The notes under the pieces: model-generated
Seen by the model: the letters and a program-made list of their open reading frames with translations, nothing else
The model's database searches: none
What the model was told of the DNA's origin: nothing
Shown: piece after piece, positions 4,133 through 38,450 of the stretch
Layout of the letters: every line of letters starts with the position of its first letter
Position numbering within the stretch: the stretch's first letter is position 1
IMG/VR virus record: IMGVR_UViG_3300028831_000428
Coordinates: 1 to 43,253 of that record
Length of the DNA: 43,253 nt
Reading direction: 5' to 3' (one strand)
Origin: a virus
Position numbers and translations under genes: made by a program

Positions 4133-4890
4133 TGGCCGATTACGGTGCTAAGGCGTCTCTACCTGGTTTTGACATTAATACAGTTGTCGACTATCTGCAG
4201 TCATTTAATTCATCATGGCCGCTGTTAAAGGTTGGAATGACGGGCGTTTATACAGGAATCGTCACTCATAATTTGGGCTATCCTCCGTTTCATCTATTGG
4301 CCACTGCAGATGGTAGGCTTGACCAATCTGCTGGGTTAATTGGTACCTATGGTGCTAACTCAGCTGTCTTGAGGCAGGCATCTGGTGCTGGAAACCAGCG
4401 GTATTATATATGTCGCCTTGATCTGACACAGGCTTTTGATGCGCCTATCATAGCAGGCGGGTCGATTCCGGCAGCTGTGGATAGGGATTATGGAATAAAG
4501 GTGGCGAAGCCGGGAAAAAGCATAAGGTCAACTGATATGCGCGATTTTGCGCTCAACTCGAGTGCGAGGTCATTAATGGTCCACAAAGTGAGACCTATCA
4601 CGCCAGTTTTAAGCGGTGCTAGCTTCATCGCGACAGTTCCGCACGGACTGCCCTATATACCGATTGCATTTGCCTATGTATTACCAGGCATTAACTTGTT
4701 GGGACTGGATATCGACAAGTATTATATTGTACCCCCACCAATTGGAGTTGCCGGTGCTTCATATACTGTAGATGCTACAAATGTCACTGTGACCATAGAT
4801 GCAACCCAGTTTGCTCCGACCCCACCAGTATCCGTGGTCGTCCTGAAAGACCCACTAGCAAAAACTACTATAAACATAAGCTATCCATGA
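4132..4890 (+). CDS. Virion protein, tandem paralogue of 4887-5312
   Basis: N-terminus MADYGAKASLPGFDI aligns with MNDYGFKVSLPGYDV of the next gene. Confidence 0.6.
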   Translation: MADYGAKASLPGFDINTVVDYLQSFNSSWPLLKVGMTGVYTGIVTHNLGYPPFHLLATADGRLDQSAGLIGTYGANSAVLRQASGAGNQRYYICRLDLTQAFDAPIIAGGSIPAAVDRDYGIKVAKPGKSIRSTDMRDFALNSSARSLMVHKVRPITPVLSGASFIATVPHGLPYIPIAFAYVLPGINLLGLDIDKYYIVPPPIGVAGASYTVDATNVTVTIDATQFAPTPPVSVVVLKDPLAKTTINISYP

Positions 4891-5312
4891 ACGATTACGG
4901 ATTCAAGGTATCACTACCAGGATACGATGTAGGGTCAGCCACACCAGAGCAATGCGCGGTGCATTCGTCTTATCCACCTTTTAAGTCCAAGACAAATCAA
5001 AATCCGCCACATTTTGCCACGGTAAGCGTTGATTTCACAGGGGTGATTACTCAAGACTTGACGCAGACGTTATATTCGATAAGTCATGGCTATAGTTATA
5101 TACCATTTACAATTGCCAATATTGTCTTTGTTGATTCATCTGGTGGTACCGAGGTCGGTATAGGGTTTGCTGGCGTGGGGTCAACGCTGGCAATCAATGC
5201 CTACTGCGATTCCACTAACTTCTACGTGACAATCTACGATAATTTTAACTGGACAGGTGCAAATGCGACGCTAGACGTATCATACTATATATTTTGCGAA
5301 GAGGGTACGTAG
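4887..5312 (+). CDS. Virion protein, tandem paralogue of 4132-4890
   Basis: Shared N-terminal motif with the upstream gene. ATGA overlap with it. Confidence 0.6.
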   Translation: MNDYGFKVSLPGYDVGSATPEQCAVHSSYPPFKSKTNQNPPHFATVSVDFTGVITQDLTQTLYSISHGYSYIPFTIANIVFVDSSGGTEVGIGFAGVGSTLAINAYCDSTNFYVTIYDNFNWTGANATLDVSYYIFCEEGT

Positions 5313-9062: not shown

Positions 9063-9285
9063 CAGGGTTCAATCTCCTTAACATTGCTTCGTGCTCCATT
9101 CTGGCTTGAGTTGCGATATCAAGGGGATCTAGAAAGATACTCTTGTCTTGTGACTCAGGCTTTTGTGCATCAGTCTTTTCTTTGATAGATTCTTGAAGAT
9201 TGCTGAGCATCTTTTTTAGTTGGTTATATTTGTAGCCAGTGTAGAAAGCTATGACTATGGCGATTATGAACGCCAGTTCTGTCAT
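9055..9285 (-). CDS. Small membrane protein (N-terminal TM)
   Basis: 76 aa with hydrophobic stretch LAFIIAIVIAFYTGY. Its start overlaps the groEL stop. Confidence 0.6.
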   Translation of the reverse strand: MTELAFIIAIVIAFYTGYKYNQLKKMLSNLQESIKEKTDAQKPESQDKSIFLDPLDIATQARMEHEAMLRRLNPDE

Positions 9286-10850
9286 TATTCTTCCTTAGCG
9301 TCCTCAAAAACGATGAGAGTATCCGTAGTCAGCATATCTGTGGCGCTGGCGGTGGCGTTTTTGATGATTTGCTGGACAACGAGGGCGGGGTCGATGATGC
9401 CCGTCTTGACCATATCAACTAGCTCGCCTTTGCCTCTGAGGTTAAAGCCGTGACCGGTGGGAGCTTTCATGGCTTCGTCTAGTTTTAGCTCTGCTGGCAG
9501 ATTGGCGTTAAGCAGGAGCTGCTTGAAGGTGTCACGAAGTGCCTCGCTGTAGGGAGAGCTGATGTCTAACTTGCTAAGCTCGAGCAGAGCAATGCCACCG
9601 CCTGGGACAATACCGGAGGTGTAGGCCGCACGGGTGGCATGGATAGCATCTTCGACCCGGAACTCGACTTCCTCTTTGACACTATCTGTGGCACCGCCGA
9701 TACGAAAGAGGGCGATCTTGCCTTCGAGCTTGGCGACACGGTCTTTCATCTTCTCGGCAACAGCATCTGATACCTCTGTTTCGATTTGGTCACGGATTTC
9801 TTGGATACGTGTTTTTACGGCTTCTGTGTCATTATTGGCAAATAGAGTAGATTCATTCTTGTTAGCCACGACTTTATCCACAGACCCTACACAGGATGTA
9901 TCAAATTCTCGAAGGTTTGATCCCTCTGTCAGTGGGTTACATTGTGCATAAATGGCAATGTCTTCGAGCAGGTATTTGCCCATCTCGCCAAACATAGCGG
10001 GGGTCTTTAGGATAACTGCATCAACTTTACCCTGATTGATGAAGTTAACTGCTGTCATATAGGCTGCTTCCTCTATATTGCCGATCAGGAGGAAACGAGG
10101 AATACCATCAGTCTGGGGGTTGAATTTGCGGGCTTGCAGGGCTTTGGTCAAGACGTCAGCGATGTCAGCAGCAGAGGTAAGGCGACGAATGGAGACGATA
10201 ACGAAGGGATCGATCAGCTCTTTCTTGCCAGCCTGGAGCGCTTGAAAGCCGGTTTGTAGGTAGTAACCATCGACATACTCGCGCTCGATGTCGTCGACCG
10301 GAGCTTTCTCAGTAATGATCCCGCCTTCGGCACCGACCCGCAGGACTGCATCAGCGATTAGCTCACCGAGCAGGGGATCGCCGGATGAGATAGTGGCGAC
10401 TTCTTTGAGTTGGCTGTCTTTGACCTTTTTGGTCATTGTGTCAAGCTTATCGAGGACTTTGTAGCTGTCCTGAAGGAACTGCTGTTTGACTTCCATTGGG
10501 TGCATACCGGCAGCGATGGCTAGTGTGCCACGTTGCATGAGGTGATAGGCAAGCGCGACCGTGGCTGTCGTGCCATCACCAGCAATGCGGTTAGTTGTTT
10601 CAGAGGCTTCAAGGACACGCTGGGTGCCCATGTTCTTTGGACGGTCAGATAGGTAAGTGTCACGGGCAACTGAGACACCATCGCGGGTAGTCAGGGGACG
10701 GCCAAAGGGCTTTTCAATCATAACATTACGGCCGCGTGGTCCGTAGGTCGAGGTAACAGCGTCGTAGACGAATCGGGCACCGGCTAGCAGCTCGGCGCGT
10801 GCTTGGTCGCCTTTAATGACGATTCTGTGGTCTTTTTTTGCTTGGGCCAT
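9285..10850 (-). CDS. groEL: Chaperonin GroEL (Cpn60), full length
   Basis: Motifs YGPRGRNV, DGTTTATV-like DGTTATVA, AVILKTPAMFGEMGKYLLEDIA (compare AVKAPGFGDRRKAMLQDIA) and GGGIALL. ATG at 10850 behind AAGGAG; the track start 10865 is an upstream TTG. Confidence 0.9.
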   Translation of the reverse strand: MAQAKKDHRIVIKGDQARAELLAGARFVYDAVTSTYGPRGRNVMIEKPFGRPLTTRDGVSVARDTYLSDRPKNMGTQRVLEASETTNRIAGDGTTATVALAYHLMQRGTLAIAAGMHPMEVKQQFLQDSYKVLDKLDTMTKKVKDSQLKEVATISSGDPLLGELIADAVLRVGAEGGIITEKAPVDDIEREYVDGYYLQTGFQALQAGKKELIDPFVIVSIRRLTSAADIADVLTKALQARKFNPQTDGIPRFLLIGNIEEAAYMTAVNFINQGKVDAVILKTPAMFGEMGKYLLEDIAIYAQCNPLTEGSNLREFDTSCVGSVDKVVANKNESTLFANNDTEAVKTRIQEIRDQIETEVSDAVAEKMKDRVAKLEGKIALFRIGGATDSVKEEVEFRVEDAIHATRAAYTSGIVPGGGIALLELSKLDISSPYSEALRDTFKQLLLNANLPAELKLDEAMKAPTGHGFNLRGKGELVDMVKTGIIDPALVVQQIIKNATASATDMLTTDTLIVFEDAKEE

Positions 10851-10851
10851 A

Positions 10852-11016
10852 CTACTCCTTGTCAACTTTCTTATCTAATTCGTGTCTGATTGTCTCCAGG
10901 ACATTTAGATGACCAGCTAGGCCTTGCATCTCATCGGACGGTACGTCGCTCTTCATTATCTCCACCTTTAGGGCGCCGATCAGCTCGTCTAGGGTCAAGC
11001 CGATGGGTATGATCAT
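10852..11016 (-). CDS. 54-aa ORF between the co-chaperonin-like gene and groEL
   Basis: Not in the ORF track (<60 aa). ATGA overlap with the upstream stop; its TAG lies 1 nt before the groEL ATG. Confidence 0.45.
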   Translation of the reverse strand: MIIPIGLTLDELIGALKVEIMKSDVPSDEMQGLAGHLNVLETIRHELDKKVDKE

Positions 11017-15204: not shown

Positions 15205-15207
15205 GCC

Positions 15208-15239
15208 TGTGTATAACCTGTGCATAACTATGTGGATTA
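15208..15239 (+). promoter_or_regulatory. Three phased DnaA-box-like 9-mers
   Basis: TGTGTATAA (15208-15216), TGTGCATAA (15219-15227) and TGTGGATTA (15231-15239), compared with TGTGGATAA, the complement of TTATCCACA. Confidence 0.5.
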
Positions 15240-15291
15240 CCGTATTTACGTTGTTGAGAAACAGCATGTCAATATGTTTTTTTCCAACAGG

Positions 15292-15358
15292 TCCTATATA
15301 TAGGAACGCGCGGTAGATATTTTCTAGATATTACCTAGTAATAAATATCTACCTAGTA
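15292..15358. repeat. Palindrome and iteron-like repeats in the AT-rich intergenic region
   Basis: TCCTATATATAGGA (15292-15305). GGTAGATATT (15312-15321) is inverted at AATATCTACC (15344-15353). TACCTAGTA occurs twice (15332-15340, 15350-15358). Confidence 0.7.
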
Positions 15359-15453
15359 CGTATAGTAGGGGAAACATTAATAAAATGTTAAATAGAATTG
15401 TCAACTGTACGCACTACACACAATCATATCAATTAATAACCGTAAGCACCATG

Positions 15454-15495
15454 CTAGTAATTAAAAATTAAAAGATTTAAAGTTTTAATTACTAG
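15454..15495. repeat. 13-bp perfect inverted repeat upstream of int
   Basis: CTAGTAATTAAAA (15454-15466) and TTTTAATTACTAG (15483-15495), with a 16-nt AT-rich spacer. Confidence 0.8.
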
Positions 15496-15542
15496 CTAGT
15501 GGGACAGAAATTGGGGGGCAAAGAAAGAGGGTTCTGATAATC

Positions 15543-16427
15543 ATGAATATTTTTTCTAAGAAAATGCAGATGGTTGACATGCAAATAGCCGAATACCTGA
15601 ATTGGTGCGAGTTCAATGCTATGATGACATGCTCAACAATGGTCACAAAGAGAAAGGCTATCGAACGGTTTTTATCTGTTAATCCAAATATAAACGATCT
15701 ATCAAAACTTACGAACGAACAATTCGATCAGTGGAGAGCCGACCTAGCAAAGGGCGGACTGGCCGGAAAGACCATTAACAACTATGCTGATCATATTACC
15801 GGGGCTATCAGATTCCTAAGAGATCGTAAAGAAGTGAGAGTGGCGATAAATCTGAACAAGATTGACCGAGCTATGGAGAGAGATGGCGAAATGCCTTACT
15901 TCACTCATGACGATATGATGTTGATAAAACAAAATTGCTATGGTCCACGTGAGAAGATTCTAATATCGCTCCTGTATGATTCTGGCCTACGGATATCAGA
16001 GGCGGCTAACTTGAAGATCAAAGATGTCAAGGAGTGTACAGTCACGATTATCGGCAAGGGCGGTAAACGTCGAACGACATTCATACTGCCAGAGACGCGA
16101 CAGGAATTAGATAAGTGGCTTCATCTGAACGATATCACTGATGGATATATCTTTCCATCGCCGACGAAATTCGGGGAGCCACTAAGCATTCAACAGATTA
16201 GGTCGTCCATTAATTCACCGATCAACAGAGCTGGACTGAAAGGAAGCGCACATACAATCCGACATAGTTTCACCACGCGTCTAATCGATGGTGGCGCGGA
16301 CATTCTTACCGCAAGCGCGGTGTTGGGGCACGCGGACACCCGAACTACGCAAGGGTACTACCACCGCCACATCGATACATTAGCGAAAAAGTTCGAGTCA
16401 GCCATGAGCGTATTGACAAAAGCCTAG
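15543..16427 (+). CDS. int: Tyrosine recombinase / phage integrase (XerC/D-like)
   Basis: GLRISEAANL (Arg I), AHTIRHSFTTRL (HxxR), LGHADTRTTQGYYH (His plus the catalytic Tyr region). Confidence 0.9.
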   Translation: MNIFSKKMQMVDMQIAEYLNWCEFNAMMTCSTMVTKRKAIERFLSVNPNINDLSKLTNEQFDQWRADLAKGGLAGKTINNYADHITGAIRFLRDRKEVRVAINLNKIDRAMERDGEMPYFTHDDMMLIKQNCYGPREKILISLLYDSGLRISEAANLKIKDVKECTVTIIGKGGKRRTTFILPETRQELDKWLHLNDITDGYIFPSPTKFGEPLSIQQIRSSINSPINRAGLKGSAHTIRHSFTTRLIDGGADILTASAVLGHADTRTTQGYYHRHIDTLAKKFESAMSVLTKA

Positions 16428-16441
16428 TTGTTTGCTAGACT
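16413..16441 (+). promoter_or_regulatory. Strong sigma70-type promoter reading into the attP/tRNA-like region
   Basis: TTGACA (16413-16418), a 17-nt spacer containing TG at -15/-14, then TAGACT (16436-16441). Overlaps the int stop codon. Confidence 0.6.
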
Positions 16442-16469
16442 GTGCTTAGTACCTTTCAAAAACAAAATT

Positions 16470-16483
16470 GATCCGGATCTTCG
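16470..16483. repeat. Left copy of the GATCCGGA(A)TC/CGAAGATCCGGA repeat flanking the tRNA-like core (arm-site or helix strand)
   Basis: TCCGGATCTTCG (16472-16483) is the exact reverse complement of CGAAGATCCGGA (16604-16615). Confidence 0.8.
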
Positions 16484-16529
16484 CAGAGAAGGCCGAGGAA
16501 TCAAGTGCCGGTAGTTCCTCTTCCTTGGT

Positions 16530-16584
16530 GAGCGCGTCCTTGCCAAGGACGAGGCCGGGGGTTAGAGTCCCCCGACCCGCACCA
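16530..16584 (+). other. tRNA-Gly(GCC) 3'-half-like segment, candidate attP core
   Basis: Anticodon arm CGTCC-TTGCCAA-GGACG (16535-16551), T arm GGGGG-TTAGAGT-CCCCC (16557-16573), acceptor 3' strand GACCCGC, then A and CCA (ends at 16584). No matching 5' acceptor strand. Confidence 0.55.
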
Positions 16585-16603
16585 GATTACCCCAGCATCA
16601 TCA

Positions 16604-16618
16604 CGAAGATCCGGAATC
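16604..16618. repeat. Right copy of the repeat flanking the tRNA-like core
   Basis: CGAAGATCCGGAATC. Overlaps the 5' arm of the terminator. Confidence 0.8.
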
Positions 16619-16633
16619 TCACCGGGTCTTTTT
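16608..16633 (+). terminator. Intrinsic terminator
   Basis: GATCCGG (16608-16614) pairs with CCGGGTC (16622-16628), including one G-U pair. 7-nt loop, then TTTTT. Confidence 0.55.
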
Positions 16634-16856
16634 ATTTACCCCGTGAGGCTAGTAAGTCACTCCTAATAGCCTCACGCAGGCGGATTAAAAACCCGTGTTC
16701 CACGAACGCACGCTCATAAGTCACTTATCGAAAGCGATTGCCACTAGGGGAACAAGAAAATAGCAGAGTTTCTTATAAACTCCGCCACCGTCACCAACTG
16801 CAAGGCTGCGGTGAAGCGTAACCGAGGACACGATTATTCGTATCTCGATCGCGCTG

Positions 16857-17342
16857 TTGGTAGCTGTCGCTTCGGTTCTAACGGCAGTTACTCCGATTCA
16901 GGCTGAGAGCTTGAAGACAGAACCAGCGCAATTTAACAATCTGATCATCGCGCAGAGGCAGCCAGCAAAGCTGCAAGGTGATCTATCGTCCGTGCATGTA
17001 GCCGACATTGCACGGGAATATAAAGCGCCGTTGCCTATCCCAACTGGGGATGCGCAAAAGCAGGCGCTGGATGTGCTGAGCGGTATGGATATAGCTAGTT
17101 CGTATACTGCCGTGGATTATATCTTCTCGCATGAGAGCGGATGGCGTCCGGGTGCGGTAAATGGATTTGGCTGTATAGGCCTTGGTCAATCCTGCCCGCT
17201 TGGTTCTGGGCTGAGTAAAGAATGTCCCGACTGGCAAACGAATGTACGTTGCCAGGTAAGACACTTTACTGCCTATGCGAACCATCGGTATGGAAGCTGG
17301 CAAGCCGCCTACGAATACTGGCTAGTGCATCACAATTGGTAA
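16857..17342 (+). CDS. Secreted lysozyme-like/transglycosylase-like protein (moron next to attP). The true start may be ATT at 16833/16836.
   Basis: Motif SHESGWRPGAVNGFGCIGLGQ. The frame stays open upstream and encodes a full signal peptide (IIRISIALLVAVASVLTAVTPIQA) behind GAGGA. Confidence 0.5.
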   Translation: MVAVASVLTAVTPIQAESLKTEPAQFNNLIIAQRQPAKLQGDLSSVHVADIAREYKAPLPIPTGDAQKQALDVLSGMDIASSYTAVDYIFSHESGWRPGAVNGFGCIGLGQSCPLGSGLSKECPDWQTNVRCQVRHFTAYANHRYGSWQAAYEYWLVHHNW

Positions 17343-17507
17343 CTATTGGTCATCCGTAGAATCTTGGGGGGATACAGGTACATTGTTCTGCCTAAGTCCG
17401 GCTAGGACTAGCTCCTTTCACAATCTTGCATACGTTTTGTGTGAATACCCCCACATTCTTGTTGCTAGCTCCCCTCAGGGCTCTACGGATGACTACGAAA
17501 CACCTTC

Positions 17508-17553
17508 GGTACCTGCGGTTGACAGTAGGATTTCCCGCTCGACCGCAGGTACC
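17508..17553. repeat. 12-bp perfect inverted repeat in a 245-bp non-coding gap
   Basis: GGTACCTGCGGT (17508-17519) and ACCGCAGGTACC (17542-17553), with a 22-nt loop. Confidence 0.8.
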
Positions 17554-17588
17554 GTTAAACAAAAGAAACAACTAAAAAGGAGATCAAT

Positions 17589-22165: not shown

Positions 22166-22804
22166 ATGAGCGATTTATACCAAAAGATCCCAGGACTTTA
22201 CAAACGGGAAGAAAAGAAGCCGTTTCGGCTAATTGAAGGTGTGTACCGTGAACCCGAGCTGGAACTGCTGAAGGACATCGAGTGGACATTCACGGAAAAA
22301 GTAGATGGTACAAACATCCGTGTTATTTGGGATGGCCATACTGTGGTATTTGGCGGTCGTACTGAAAACGCGCAGATACCCTCACATCTTGTCACTAAGC
22401 TTAACGAGCTATTTATGGGTACGCGTATGGAGCAAGTGTTCGAGCAGGTATTCGGTGAGAGTAAGGCAATTCTTTTTGGCGAAGGCTATGGTGCAAAGAT
22501 ACAGAAAGGCGGGGGCAATTATTCATCAACTCAAGAGTTCGTACTGTTTGACGTGCTTGTGGGTGAATGGTATTTGCGCCGTGAAGACATTGAGGATGTA
22601 GCCAGTAGGTTCGGCCTAAAGGTCGTACCAATTATAGCTAAAGGCACGCTCGCCCAAGGAGTCAAGCTCATCAAAGACGGCCTAAAGTCTCAGTGGGGTG
22701 ACTTTACTGCCGAAGGATTAGTCGCGAAGCCCAGCGTGGACTTATTTAACCGTAAGGGGGAGCGTATTGTTACTAAGATTAAGCATGAAGATTTCTATGA
22801 CTAA
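22166..22804 (+). CDS. ATP-dependent RNA ligase family protein (nucleotidyltransferase superfamily)
   Basis: Motif I TEKVDGTNIRV (KxDGxN), FGEGYGAKIQ, AEGLVAKP and VTKIKHEDF. Confidence 0.7.
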   Translation: MSDLYQKIPGLYKREEKKPFRLIEGVYREPELELLKDIEWTFTEKVDGTNIRVIWDGHTVVFGGRTENAQIPSHLVTKLNELFMGTRMEQVFEQVFGESKAILFGEGYGAKIQKGGGNYSSTQEFVLFDVLVGEWYLRREDIEDVASRFGLKVVPIIAKGTLAQGVKLIKDGLKSQWGDFTAEGLVAKPSVDLFNRKGERIVTKIKHEDFYD

Positions 22805-26839: not shown

Positions 26840-27030
26840 GTTGGTAGCTACTCTGATACCAGTGACGTCTTATCTAAGAATGAGTAATTCCGAGAGCGTA
26901 TGTCGTATCGCTACCCTAGCCAGTTACTATTTTTCCTTTATAGCTGAGCTGACTGTAACCTCATATTAGCATAGGTGTAATGGATTGTCAATATGCAATT
27001 TGATAAACATGAGCAATATGTTTTGGGAAG

Positions 27031-37913: not shown

Positions 37914-38450
37914 ATGGCTAACTTGTACATTGAAAACTATGTCCCAGCAGTTAAAGAAGCGGGTGGCTTAAAGACTAAATTGCCGATGACACTTTCTGGT
38001 ACATCGGCAACGCTCGCAGTCGGTGGGACATTGGCTGTAACAGGTGTGGCGACGTTTACTGCGGCTCCAGTCTTTACGGCGGGGATCCCTACAGGCTCGT
38101 TTCTGCGTACCATCACTGACAGCGCCTTGGTTGGCGCCACAGTAGCGCTCACTGCTGCCCAGTCTGGTCAGGTGTTCAACAATCGATCAACCAGCGGTAG
38201 CCCATCATGGACGCTGCCAACGGCGGCTAATGGCCTGTGGTACACCTTCACGGTATCGGATGTCACCACTGGTTTCACGGTTACAGGTGGAACAATCAAA
38301 GCCAAGACTTCTGCCACAGGAACGGCCATCAGCGGCACGACCTTGACCAATACTCAAGGAACAGCTGTTGTCGGAGACACCATCACCCTAGTATGTGATG
38401 GTACGGTTTGGCGCATGGTTGCTCAATCTGGCATCTTTGCCGCAAGCTAG
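37914..38450 (+). CDS. Small fibre-like virion protein sharing an N-terminal docking motif with the tailspike
   Basis: MANLYIENYVPAVKEAGGL compared with MSLLIEQYIPVVKQVGL at 40960. Confidence 0.55.
   Translation: MANLYIENYVPAVKEAGGLKTKLPMTLSGTSATLAVGGTLAVTGVATFTAAPVFTAGIPTGSFLRTITDSALVGATVALTAAQSGQVFNNRSTSGSPSWTLPTAANGLWYTFTVSDVTTGFTVTGGTIKAKTSATGTAISGTTLTNTQGTAVVGDTITLVCDGTVWRMVAQSGIFAAS

Follow-up and report, generated by a model that had tools for sequence, protein, structure and literature searches.

The question raised by positions 15,543 to 16,633 of IMG/VR record IMGVR_UViG_3300028831_000428, a phage genome whose whole 43,253 nucleotides (nt) we analysed and call the window, is why a near-consensus promoter at the end of an integrase gene should point into a tRNA-like region that is flanked by a 12-nt inverted repeat and closed by a terminator. 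The original prediction, made from the letters of the sequence, saw in this arrangement either an antiterminator/terminator switch or a tRNA-like small RNA. We assign a probability of about 0.5 to the reading that the region is the promoter and leader attenuator of an early-side transcription unit, with the phage attachment site (attP) embedded in the leader. What was observed here is the sequence elements and their conservation, two folds that exclude each other, and an identity to a host tRNA; from these we infer promoter activity, termination and antitermination, as well as the crossover position and the prophage junctions. The elements that the argument needs are the following.

15543–16427, plus strand: tyrosine integrase gene (int), 294 amino acids (PF00589, E = 1e-26), whose final codons hold the −35 element
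16413–16441, plus strand: predicted sigma-70-type promoter from a consensus scan (TTGACA, 17-nt spacer, TGc, TAGACT), with a predicted start near 16448
16450–16466, plus strand: A-rich leader motif from the alignment of relatives, consensus (GAAC)WTTBAAAANCAAA
16472–16483, plus strand: left arm (segment 1, the putative antiterminator strand), TCCGGATCTTCG, one half of an exact inverted repeat
16493–16529, plus strand: degenerate tRNA 5′ half, from sequence comparison and folding
16530–16584, plus strand: attP core, whose 55 nt match tRNA-Gly(GCC) exactly over its 3′ end (D-stem 3′ strand through CCA), with the anticodon loop at 16540–16546
16604–16615, plus strand: right arm (segment 2), CGAAGATCCGGA, which can partner the left arm or act as the 5′ arm of the terminator
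16605–16637, plus strand: predicted intrinsic terminator with stem 16605–16614/16622–16631, a T-run at 16629–16633 followed by ATTT, and a free energy (dG) of −13.2

Promoter and leader

The promoter proposed at the end of int is present as described: TTGACA (16413–16418), TG (16433–16434) and TAGACT (16436–16441) score 10/12 in the consensus scan and include an extended −10. Relatives of the integrase were collected at ten loci, namely P0002–P0009 (38–57% identical), L020, which came from a metagenome scan, and L046, an IMG/VR sequence. Beside the int stop codon, each of the ten relatives fetched (31–57% identity) has TTGACA and TAnnnT separated by 17 nt, in most cases with TG before the −10; a promoter of at least 10/12 within −40 to +120 of the int stop was found at none of 23 control loci, whose integrases are more distant. 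Judged by sequence and conservation, the promoter is real and conserved. Host tRNA-Gly genes are likewise preceded by TTGnnA/TAnnnT-like hexamers, as seen by eye.

A perfect −35 with a 17-nt spacer and TG occurs at only two sites in the 43 kb, both strands included. The second (26963–26991, minus strand, −10 TAATAT) lies in the gap ahead of the terminase region, faces leftward and may belong to a genetic switch. In three of the related phages a direct repeat stands just 5′ of the −35 and is repeated in the promoter spacer (AAGCGCAT at 4868–4911 in both L015 and L017; TAAGCGTT at 4872–4914 in L016); its operator-like placement suggests that the promoter is regulated.

Within the leader, 16450–16466 is the best match in the window to the A-rich motif (two mismatches), and the sole other match at up to three mismatches is at 38290. 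The motif may be boxA-like, with a resemblance to the Firmicute rrn boxA (GTTCTTTGAAAAC); the host loci hold no rRNA operon with which to compare it, and the literature yielded no usable consensus. An open reading frame (ORF) of 83 amino acids at 16468–16719 has no Pfam match, and the element differs between relatives by many insertions and deletions; Pfam and alignment found no conserved leader ORF in the relatives.

Two folds that share a strand

The 12-nt complementarity reported earlier is perfect, and TCCGGATCTTCG (16472–16483) and its exact reverse complement (16604–16615) are the sole perfect copies in the window. All 10 nt of the predicted 5′ arm of the terminator lie inside the right arm of this repeat. 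The terminator is a G+C-rich hairpin followed directly by a U-run, its strongest stem part being the core pairing GATCCGG/CCGGGTC. The minimum-free-energy fold of 16448–16640 includes the 12-bp helix, with z = −5.2 against shuffles, and the left arm could also form a local hairpin at 16478–16492 (TCTTC-GCAGA-GAAGG). An Rfam scan of the region gave no riboswitch, no T-box and no family above threshold. A random sequence of 43 kb should contain about 0.55 perfect 12-mer inverted repeats within 250 nt, and the window has seven such clusters; a chance repeat would be possible from one sequence alone, and it is the conservation in relatives that settles the point.

Conservation in related phages

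The relatives share the order of elements downstream of int: A-rich leader motif, left arm, degenerate tRNA 5′ half, a species-variant tRNA-Gly 3′ part, right arm and a terminator ending GGGTCTTTTT. In a partner test, the terminator 5′ arm plus the 12 nt upstream of it served as the probe, with 1000 dinucleotide shuffles per locus. A partner was located 25–40 nt from the predicted start in eight of nine phages. The observed energy was reached by none of the 1000 shuffles in the window, L015, L016 and L017, by four in L020, five in L013, 27 in L012 and 62 in L014.

The arm sequences vary by phage (GGGTCTTCGACAAAC/GTTTGTCGAAGACCC in L016 and GGCTTTCAGATGC/GCATCTGAAAGCC in L020) around an invariant TCTTC/GAAGA core, and five phages between them have two to four Watson–Crick pair types at each of positions −5 to −1 and +5 to +8; these pairing changes were read from an anchored pair table, the sequences being too divergent for reliable alignment outside the anchors. 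The claim of the original prediction that the 3′ strand of the helix overlaps the 5′ arm of the terminator extends to the relatives as well, with an overlap of 6–10 nt in all eight phages. When each fold was enforced at full length, helix and terminator differed by 0.8–4.1 kcal/mol in seven of the eight; the exception is L016, in which the helix is favoured by 12 kcal/mol. Alternative helices that share a strand and carry compensatory changes are what an attenuator would have, and the proposed antiterminator/terminator logic is in this respect supported by sequence and comparison.

The complementary stretch is 9–18 bp long and its register shifts between phages. The left arm keeps a constant place 24–35 nt from the start, and the helix itself spans 125–193 nt depending on the phage. 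Complementarity continues inward over 19–90 aligned positions (at least 40 in seven of eight loci), pairing the leader with the trailer and the degenerate 5′ half with the acceptor 3′ strand including the CCA end. What the helix encloses differs widely. L020 (2459–2705) has, inside the helix, a whole tRNA-Gly(GCC) in the opposite orientation, scoring 68.9 bits, and a partial second copy; L016 (4921–5094) has a shorter, different interior with no tRNA-Gly piece, together with the strongest outer helix (15–18 bp); and L012 and L019 have kept near-complete tRNA 5′ halves.

A further comparison is provided by L049, a 43-kb IMG/VR genome that is syntenic with the window on both sides and has neither int nor attP at the locus. 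Their place (reverse strand, ∼1398–2003) is taken by an ORF of 101–107 amino acids with no Pfam match, followed by a terminator. L049 retains a TTGACA-17-TACAAT promoter, a structured leader of ∼160 nt and the terminator, and a segment of the leader pairs with the terminator 5′ arm and loop. Since promoter, leader and terminator are retained without int, the switch would be independent of integration.

A candidate role for the left-arm hairpin and the A-rich leader as a minus-strand terminator was rejected as a general feature: it was flagged in L013 only and is absent in the window and in L016, and the minus-strand terminator match in L015 sits in the promoter spacer, not in the left-arm hairpin.

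The interior as an attachment site

The tRNA-like domain enclosed by the helix had been regarded as an RNA module, and this is the part of the original prediction that did not hold. The 55 nt at 16530–16584 are exactly identical to the 3′ end of tRNA-Gly(GCC) in L002, L005, L007 and L008. Eight genome contigs match a 25-mer taken from the T-arm and acceptor region. A complete tRNA-Gly(GCC) is present in six of them, of which five are labelled as Saccharibacteria or Patescibacteria metagenome-assembled genomes and the sixth, L005, as Magnetospirillaceae. The 25-mer has no match in IMG/VR. Because a 55-nt identity to a host tRNA lies directly downstream of an integrase gene, 16530–16584 is, on this sequence evidence, the attP core and not a functional RNA module, and the host of this temperate phage is assigned, through the exact attP/tRNA-Gly identity, to the Saccharibacteria. 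The crossover probably falls in the symmetric anticodon stem-loop.

A tRNA or tmRNA gene was considered and rejected. ARAGORN makes no tRNA call in the window or in the ten integrase relatives, and Rfam RF00005 matches 16507–16581 (anticodon GCC) at 27.7 bits, under the gathering score of 29; the score in L012 is 35.4 bits. There is no D-arm, the 5′ half is degenerate, and the pairing of GTGCCGGT (16505–16512) with ACCCGCAC (16575–16582) would leave the CCA end base-paired. Strict DNA symmetry about the crossover was rejected too: the centre of the repeat lies +0.5 and +1 from the centre of the anticodon loop in the window and L012, respectively, and −3, −5, −10 and −11 from it in other relatives.

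Host tRNA-Gly genes have an intrinsic terminator of their own ∼10 nt past the CCA, ending GGTCTTTTTT. The Saccharibacteria tRNA-Gly(GCC) in L002, L005, L007 and L008 has an unusual T-loop, TTAGAGT, with A where C56 is expected, and a D-loop with no GG (AGTTGTTTA); the usual G19–C56 tertiary pair therefore seems to be absent, and the molecule still obtains 68 bits from the Rfam tRNA model. Two fragments in assemblies of Streptomyces and Pseudofrankia (L001 2060–2250 and L003 600–800) hold only the tRNA-Gly 3′ part, from the anticodon loop onwards, with TGACGGC repeats on both sides. They look like the attP of another mobile element, whose source is perhaps Saccharibacteria epibionts in the cultures.

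Proposed mechanism

An RNA starting at ∼16448 would carry segment 1 (16472–16483), its local partner 1′, segment 2 (16604–16615) and segment 3, the terminator 3′ arm with the U-run. Pairing of 1 with 1′ would give a small local hairpin as an alternative for segment 1. Pairing of 1 with 2 (12 bp), extended inward by leader–trailer pairing and by the acceptor 3′ strand of the tRNA part, would sequester the terminator 5′ arm and allow read-through to the transglycosylase-like gene and to ERF and the early genes. Pairing of 2 with 3 would terminate transcription and release an RNA of ∼185 nt. In the circular state, the balance between the two might be set constitutively by co-transcriptional zippering or by a factor acting on the A-rich leader or on the 1:1′ hairpin.

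The attP core sits between segments 1 and 2, and integration must therefore split the switch; the original prediction had not considered this separation of the two helix strands. At attL, the rebuilt host tRNA would be followed by segments 2 and 3 only, an unopposed terminator that would replace the displaced host terminator and keep transcription from the tRNA promoter out of the early genes. The promoter and segment 1 would end up at attR, facing outward towards what is left of the tRNA 3′ end and the terminator of the host. The predicted attL junction reads tRNA-Gly and then GATTACCCCAGCATCATCACGAAGATCCGG, and the predicted attR is 16448–16529 followed by the host trailer. A simulated attL RNA, joined from the host leader, the 5′ part of the tRNA, the core and the phage trailer, folds into a cloverleaf and an unopposed terminator; in the simulated attR RNA the left arm folds locally and the transcript would end at the host terminator. 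As integration parts the promoter and segment 1 from segments 2 and 3, read-through would be expected only on circular or virion DNA. We advance tentatively, as a possibility that we hold to be unlikely on balance, the further idea that the leader RNA is a sensor of genome topology, such that the early programme would be transcribed from circular or virion DNA only.

Evidence against the attenuator and alternative explanations

Several observations weigh against the attenuator or against its link to integration. L046, the most distant relative, has the terminator and showed no leader partner in the probe test. A local left-arm hairpin is possible in nearly every phage, and in L013, L014, L015 and L017 the minimum-free-energy fold favours the terminator together with this hairpin. 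When the left half is compared with the reverse complement of the right half, transition mismatches of the A·C type (22) exceed those of the G·U type (11), and the long-range pairing thus has no plus-strand wobble signature; several terminator hairpins (e.g. that of L013) do hold plus-strand G·U pairs, by inspection. Inverted sites for a phage-specific protein would also co-vary between phages. The attL and attR junctions are predicted ones: no lysogen turned up among the integrase-bearing contigs read, of which nine cross the site unsplit and that of L019 stops inside the core, and a search for lysogens through the transglycosylase-like protein found two homologues, neither of them informative. 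Finally, because L049 has the switch without int or attP, the sensing of integration state cannot be its sole or original purpose; on this comparison, dependence on integration state is a predicted consequence of where attP was placed, not the sole purpose of the switch.

The alternative that survives best, and that we nevertheless consider unlikely, is a discrete, stable small RNA of ∼185 nt, for example a tRNA-like decoy, in which the 12-bp helix would be a closing stem formed after termination and there would be no regulated read-through. A strong promoter and a good terminator do bracket a highly structured RNA (the z of −5.2 given above), the Rfam tRNA scores of the window and L012 are near threshold, and the phage does encode the RNA ligase that had been cited in this connection (an RNA ligase domain protein at 22166–22804). 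Such an RNA would be made from circular and integrated DNA alike, with a different 3′ end. Its interior is, however, not conserved as RNA, which argues against the decoy that had been suggested: helix and terminator stay, while the interior is an antisense tRNA in L020, has no tRNA-Gly in L016 and is unrelated in L049, which has neither int nor tRNA at the locus. The missing ARAGORN calls and D-arm and the paired CCA end speak against it as well, and the 3′ half is wholly explained by identity to the host attB. A small RNA also leaves aside the conserved untranslated region (UTR) downstream, which has no promoter of its own: plus-strand promoter-like sites between the terminator and the next genes were not found in the window, L013, L015 or L016.

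Rather less probable is that the repeats work in DNA, a caveat already made in the original prediction. They would bind the integrase, a directionality factor or an architectural protein of the host at the attP arms, or form a cruciform, their overlap with the terminator being incidental. The repeats do flank the core, and in the window and in L012 their centre is no more than 1 bp away from the middle of the anticodon loop; GATCCGGATC is palindromic in itself; the attP-like tRNA-Gly fragments of L001 and L003 are flanked by repeats; the plus-strand G·U bias is missing; and covariation of the arms would also be expected of phage-specific protein sites. Against this stand the variable offsets from the loop centre and the variable span (125–193 bp) in the other relatives, which leave no conserved spacing or phasing, and the shifting register and length (9–18 bp) of the complementary stretch. 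The overlap with the terminator 5′ arm recurs in 8/8 phages, the left arm keeps its distance from the start site and not from the core, and L049 retains the leader–terminator pairing with no integrase at the locus. Pfam detects only the catalytic domain in the 294-amino-acid integrase, with no N-terminal (arm-binding) domain.

Retroregulation of the kind known from lambda sib would have the int mRNA run past its stop and form a long imperfect hairpin only when attP is intact, with RNase III cleavage making Int levels differ between circular and integrated DNA. The extensive complementarity of the two halves fits this, there is no terminator between int and the element, and attP parts the halves as it parts int from sib in lambda (PMC2951348). 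We regard this explanation as improbable: it leaves unexplained both the conserved promoter after int and the retention of the module in the int-less L049, and many mismatches interrupt the stem. That the terminator alone is functional, as a replacement behind the rebuilt tRNA, with the promoter and complementarity being relics of a captured whole tRNA-Gly gene, is hardly likely either, for although host tRNA-Gly terminators are similar, near-complete tRNA 5′ halves persist in L012 and L019 and L020 holds a whole tRNA, relics would not retain TTGACA, a 17-nt spacer and TAnnnT in 10/10 relatives down to 31% identity, nor leader–trailer pairing outside the tRNA through compensatory changes, and host leaders have no such pairing to the trailer.

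Comparison with known systems

The attenuator with embedded attP has its closest precedent in ICEKp1, ICEclc (Pcirc) and ICEEc1, integrative conjugative elements (ICEs) that integrate at a tRNA 3′ end and in which a strong, distal, outward promoter reads across attP only when the element is circular (PMC13023037; PMC5812530). In its integrated state ICEKp1 is transcribed from the tRNA-Asn promoter of the host, through terminator-like stem-loops; after excision, a promoter at its 3′ end reads across attP, and a 15-bp promoter-side sequence relieves the tRNA-side terminator-like structure, for which the authors propose base pairing with SL3 from in silico folding (PMC13023037). ICEclc Pcirc and the read-through of the joint in Tn916 follow the same circular-form principle (PMC5812530). 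As in these ICEs, terminator-like stem-loops stand right behind the tRNA and would be relieved by a short promoter-side sequence; at the sequence level the window has the distal outward promoter, the tRNA-proximal terminator and the complementary promoter-side sequence. The differences are that int lies upstream of the promoter here, the genes reached being the transglycosylase-like gene, ERF and other early genes and not int; that the element is a tailed phage of Saccharibacteria; that it supplies a canonical intrinsic terminator, whereas the ICEs displace the tRNA terminator without replacement; and that the pairing straddles the core, is backed by a comparison of eight phages and is retained in a relative lacking int. 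Tn916 likewise has end genes that are transcribed only by read-through over the joined ends of the circle (PMC5812530); unlike the phage, it is a conjugative transposon for which no terminator/antiterminator pairing across the joint is described.

The leader resembles the trp, pyr and T-box attenuators in its four segments, its shared strand, its near-isoenergetic folds and an operon with no promoter of its own. In contrast to these, we identified no leader peptide, ligand pocket or specifier and no Rfam match, and the antiterminator helix spans 125–193 nt and encloses a recombination site.

Phages whose integrases target tRNA genes carry the 3′ part of the tRNA gene in attP and supply the 3′ end of the gene after integration. 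The window agrees with such sites in its 55 host-identical nucleotides beside an integrase gene, and departs from them in that the flanks form a conserved and, by prediction, transcribed module of alternative structures. In the split-operon control of int in P2, the promoter is separated from int, with attP between the gene and the cis-element. In lambda, attP separates int from sib (PMC2951348). The shared principle is that attP keeps a cis-acting RNA element apart from a gene or promoter, so that integration alters expression; in both of these phages, unlike here, it is int that is controlled, in sib through RNase III after transcription and in P2 without an antiterminator arm.

Downstream region and genome context

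Two further features follow the terminator.

16642–16700, plus strand: conserved downstream hairpin (CGTGAGGCTAGTA/TAATAGCCTCACG) and invariant block CACGCAGGCGGATTAAAAACCCGTG, from comparison with relatives
16780–17342, plus strand: conserved structured 5′ UTR and transglycosylase-like gene (phrog_12661), the first gene that read-through would reach

The 200–400 nt past the terminator are conserved non-coding sequence in the relatives. In the window, 16642–16835 contains the hairpin at 16642–16676, the invariant CACGCAGGCGGATTAAAAACCCGTG, ACAAGnAAATAGCAGA and a hairpin near 16785–16815, and these blocks have no Rfam match. The last hairpin lies just 5′ of the transglycosylase-like gene and appears, by inspection, with compensatory changes in L012. 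The original prediction described this gene correctly as transglycosylase-like and probably misplaced its start: instead of the listed TTG at 16857, the start is probably ATT at 16836 (or 16833), 5–8 nt past GAGGA, and the arrangement GAGGAG...ATT CGT ATC is also found in L013. The next intergenic region (17349–17555) has a second long-range perfect 12-bp inverted repeat (∼17349–17360/17482–17493) and a 12-bp hairpin (17507–17554), and may be another structured leader.

Genes for the large terminase, portal, major head protein, tail fibre, ERF recombinase and an M23 peptidase identify the 43-kb window as a tailed phage. The same phage is present as ∼43-kb contigs in three further metagenomes, and a search of INPHARED gave zero matches. 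Genes on the minus strand are few; one of them (9285–10865) encodes a full-length GroEL-like chaperonin (phrog_5725, E = 4e-103). The A+T-rich stretch 5′ of int (15205–15542) has several inverted and direct repeats, among them GGTAGATATTT/AAATATCTACC, TACCTAGTA, which occurs twice, and an inverted repeat of 21 nt (15453–15496); part of it is conserved in L049, and it may be an operator or origin-like region.

Implications

The exact attP match gives a host to a 43-kb phage that has no INPHARED match. If the attenuator reading is true, the principle of a promoter and antiterminator that attP separates from a terminator, shown so far only for ICEs, would extend to phages, and the comparison of eight phages adds support for the base-pairing step that the ICEKp1 study proposed from in silico folding. 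If, in addition, the leader does sense genome topology, attP would stand between the only strong early-side promoter with its antiterminator arm and the terminator with the early genes; integration itself would then silence the prophage, and lytic development after induction would have to await excision. The control of lysogeny in phages of the candidate phyla radiation is almost wholly uncharted, and this locus offers a concrete, mutable cis-element of ∼225 bp.

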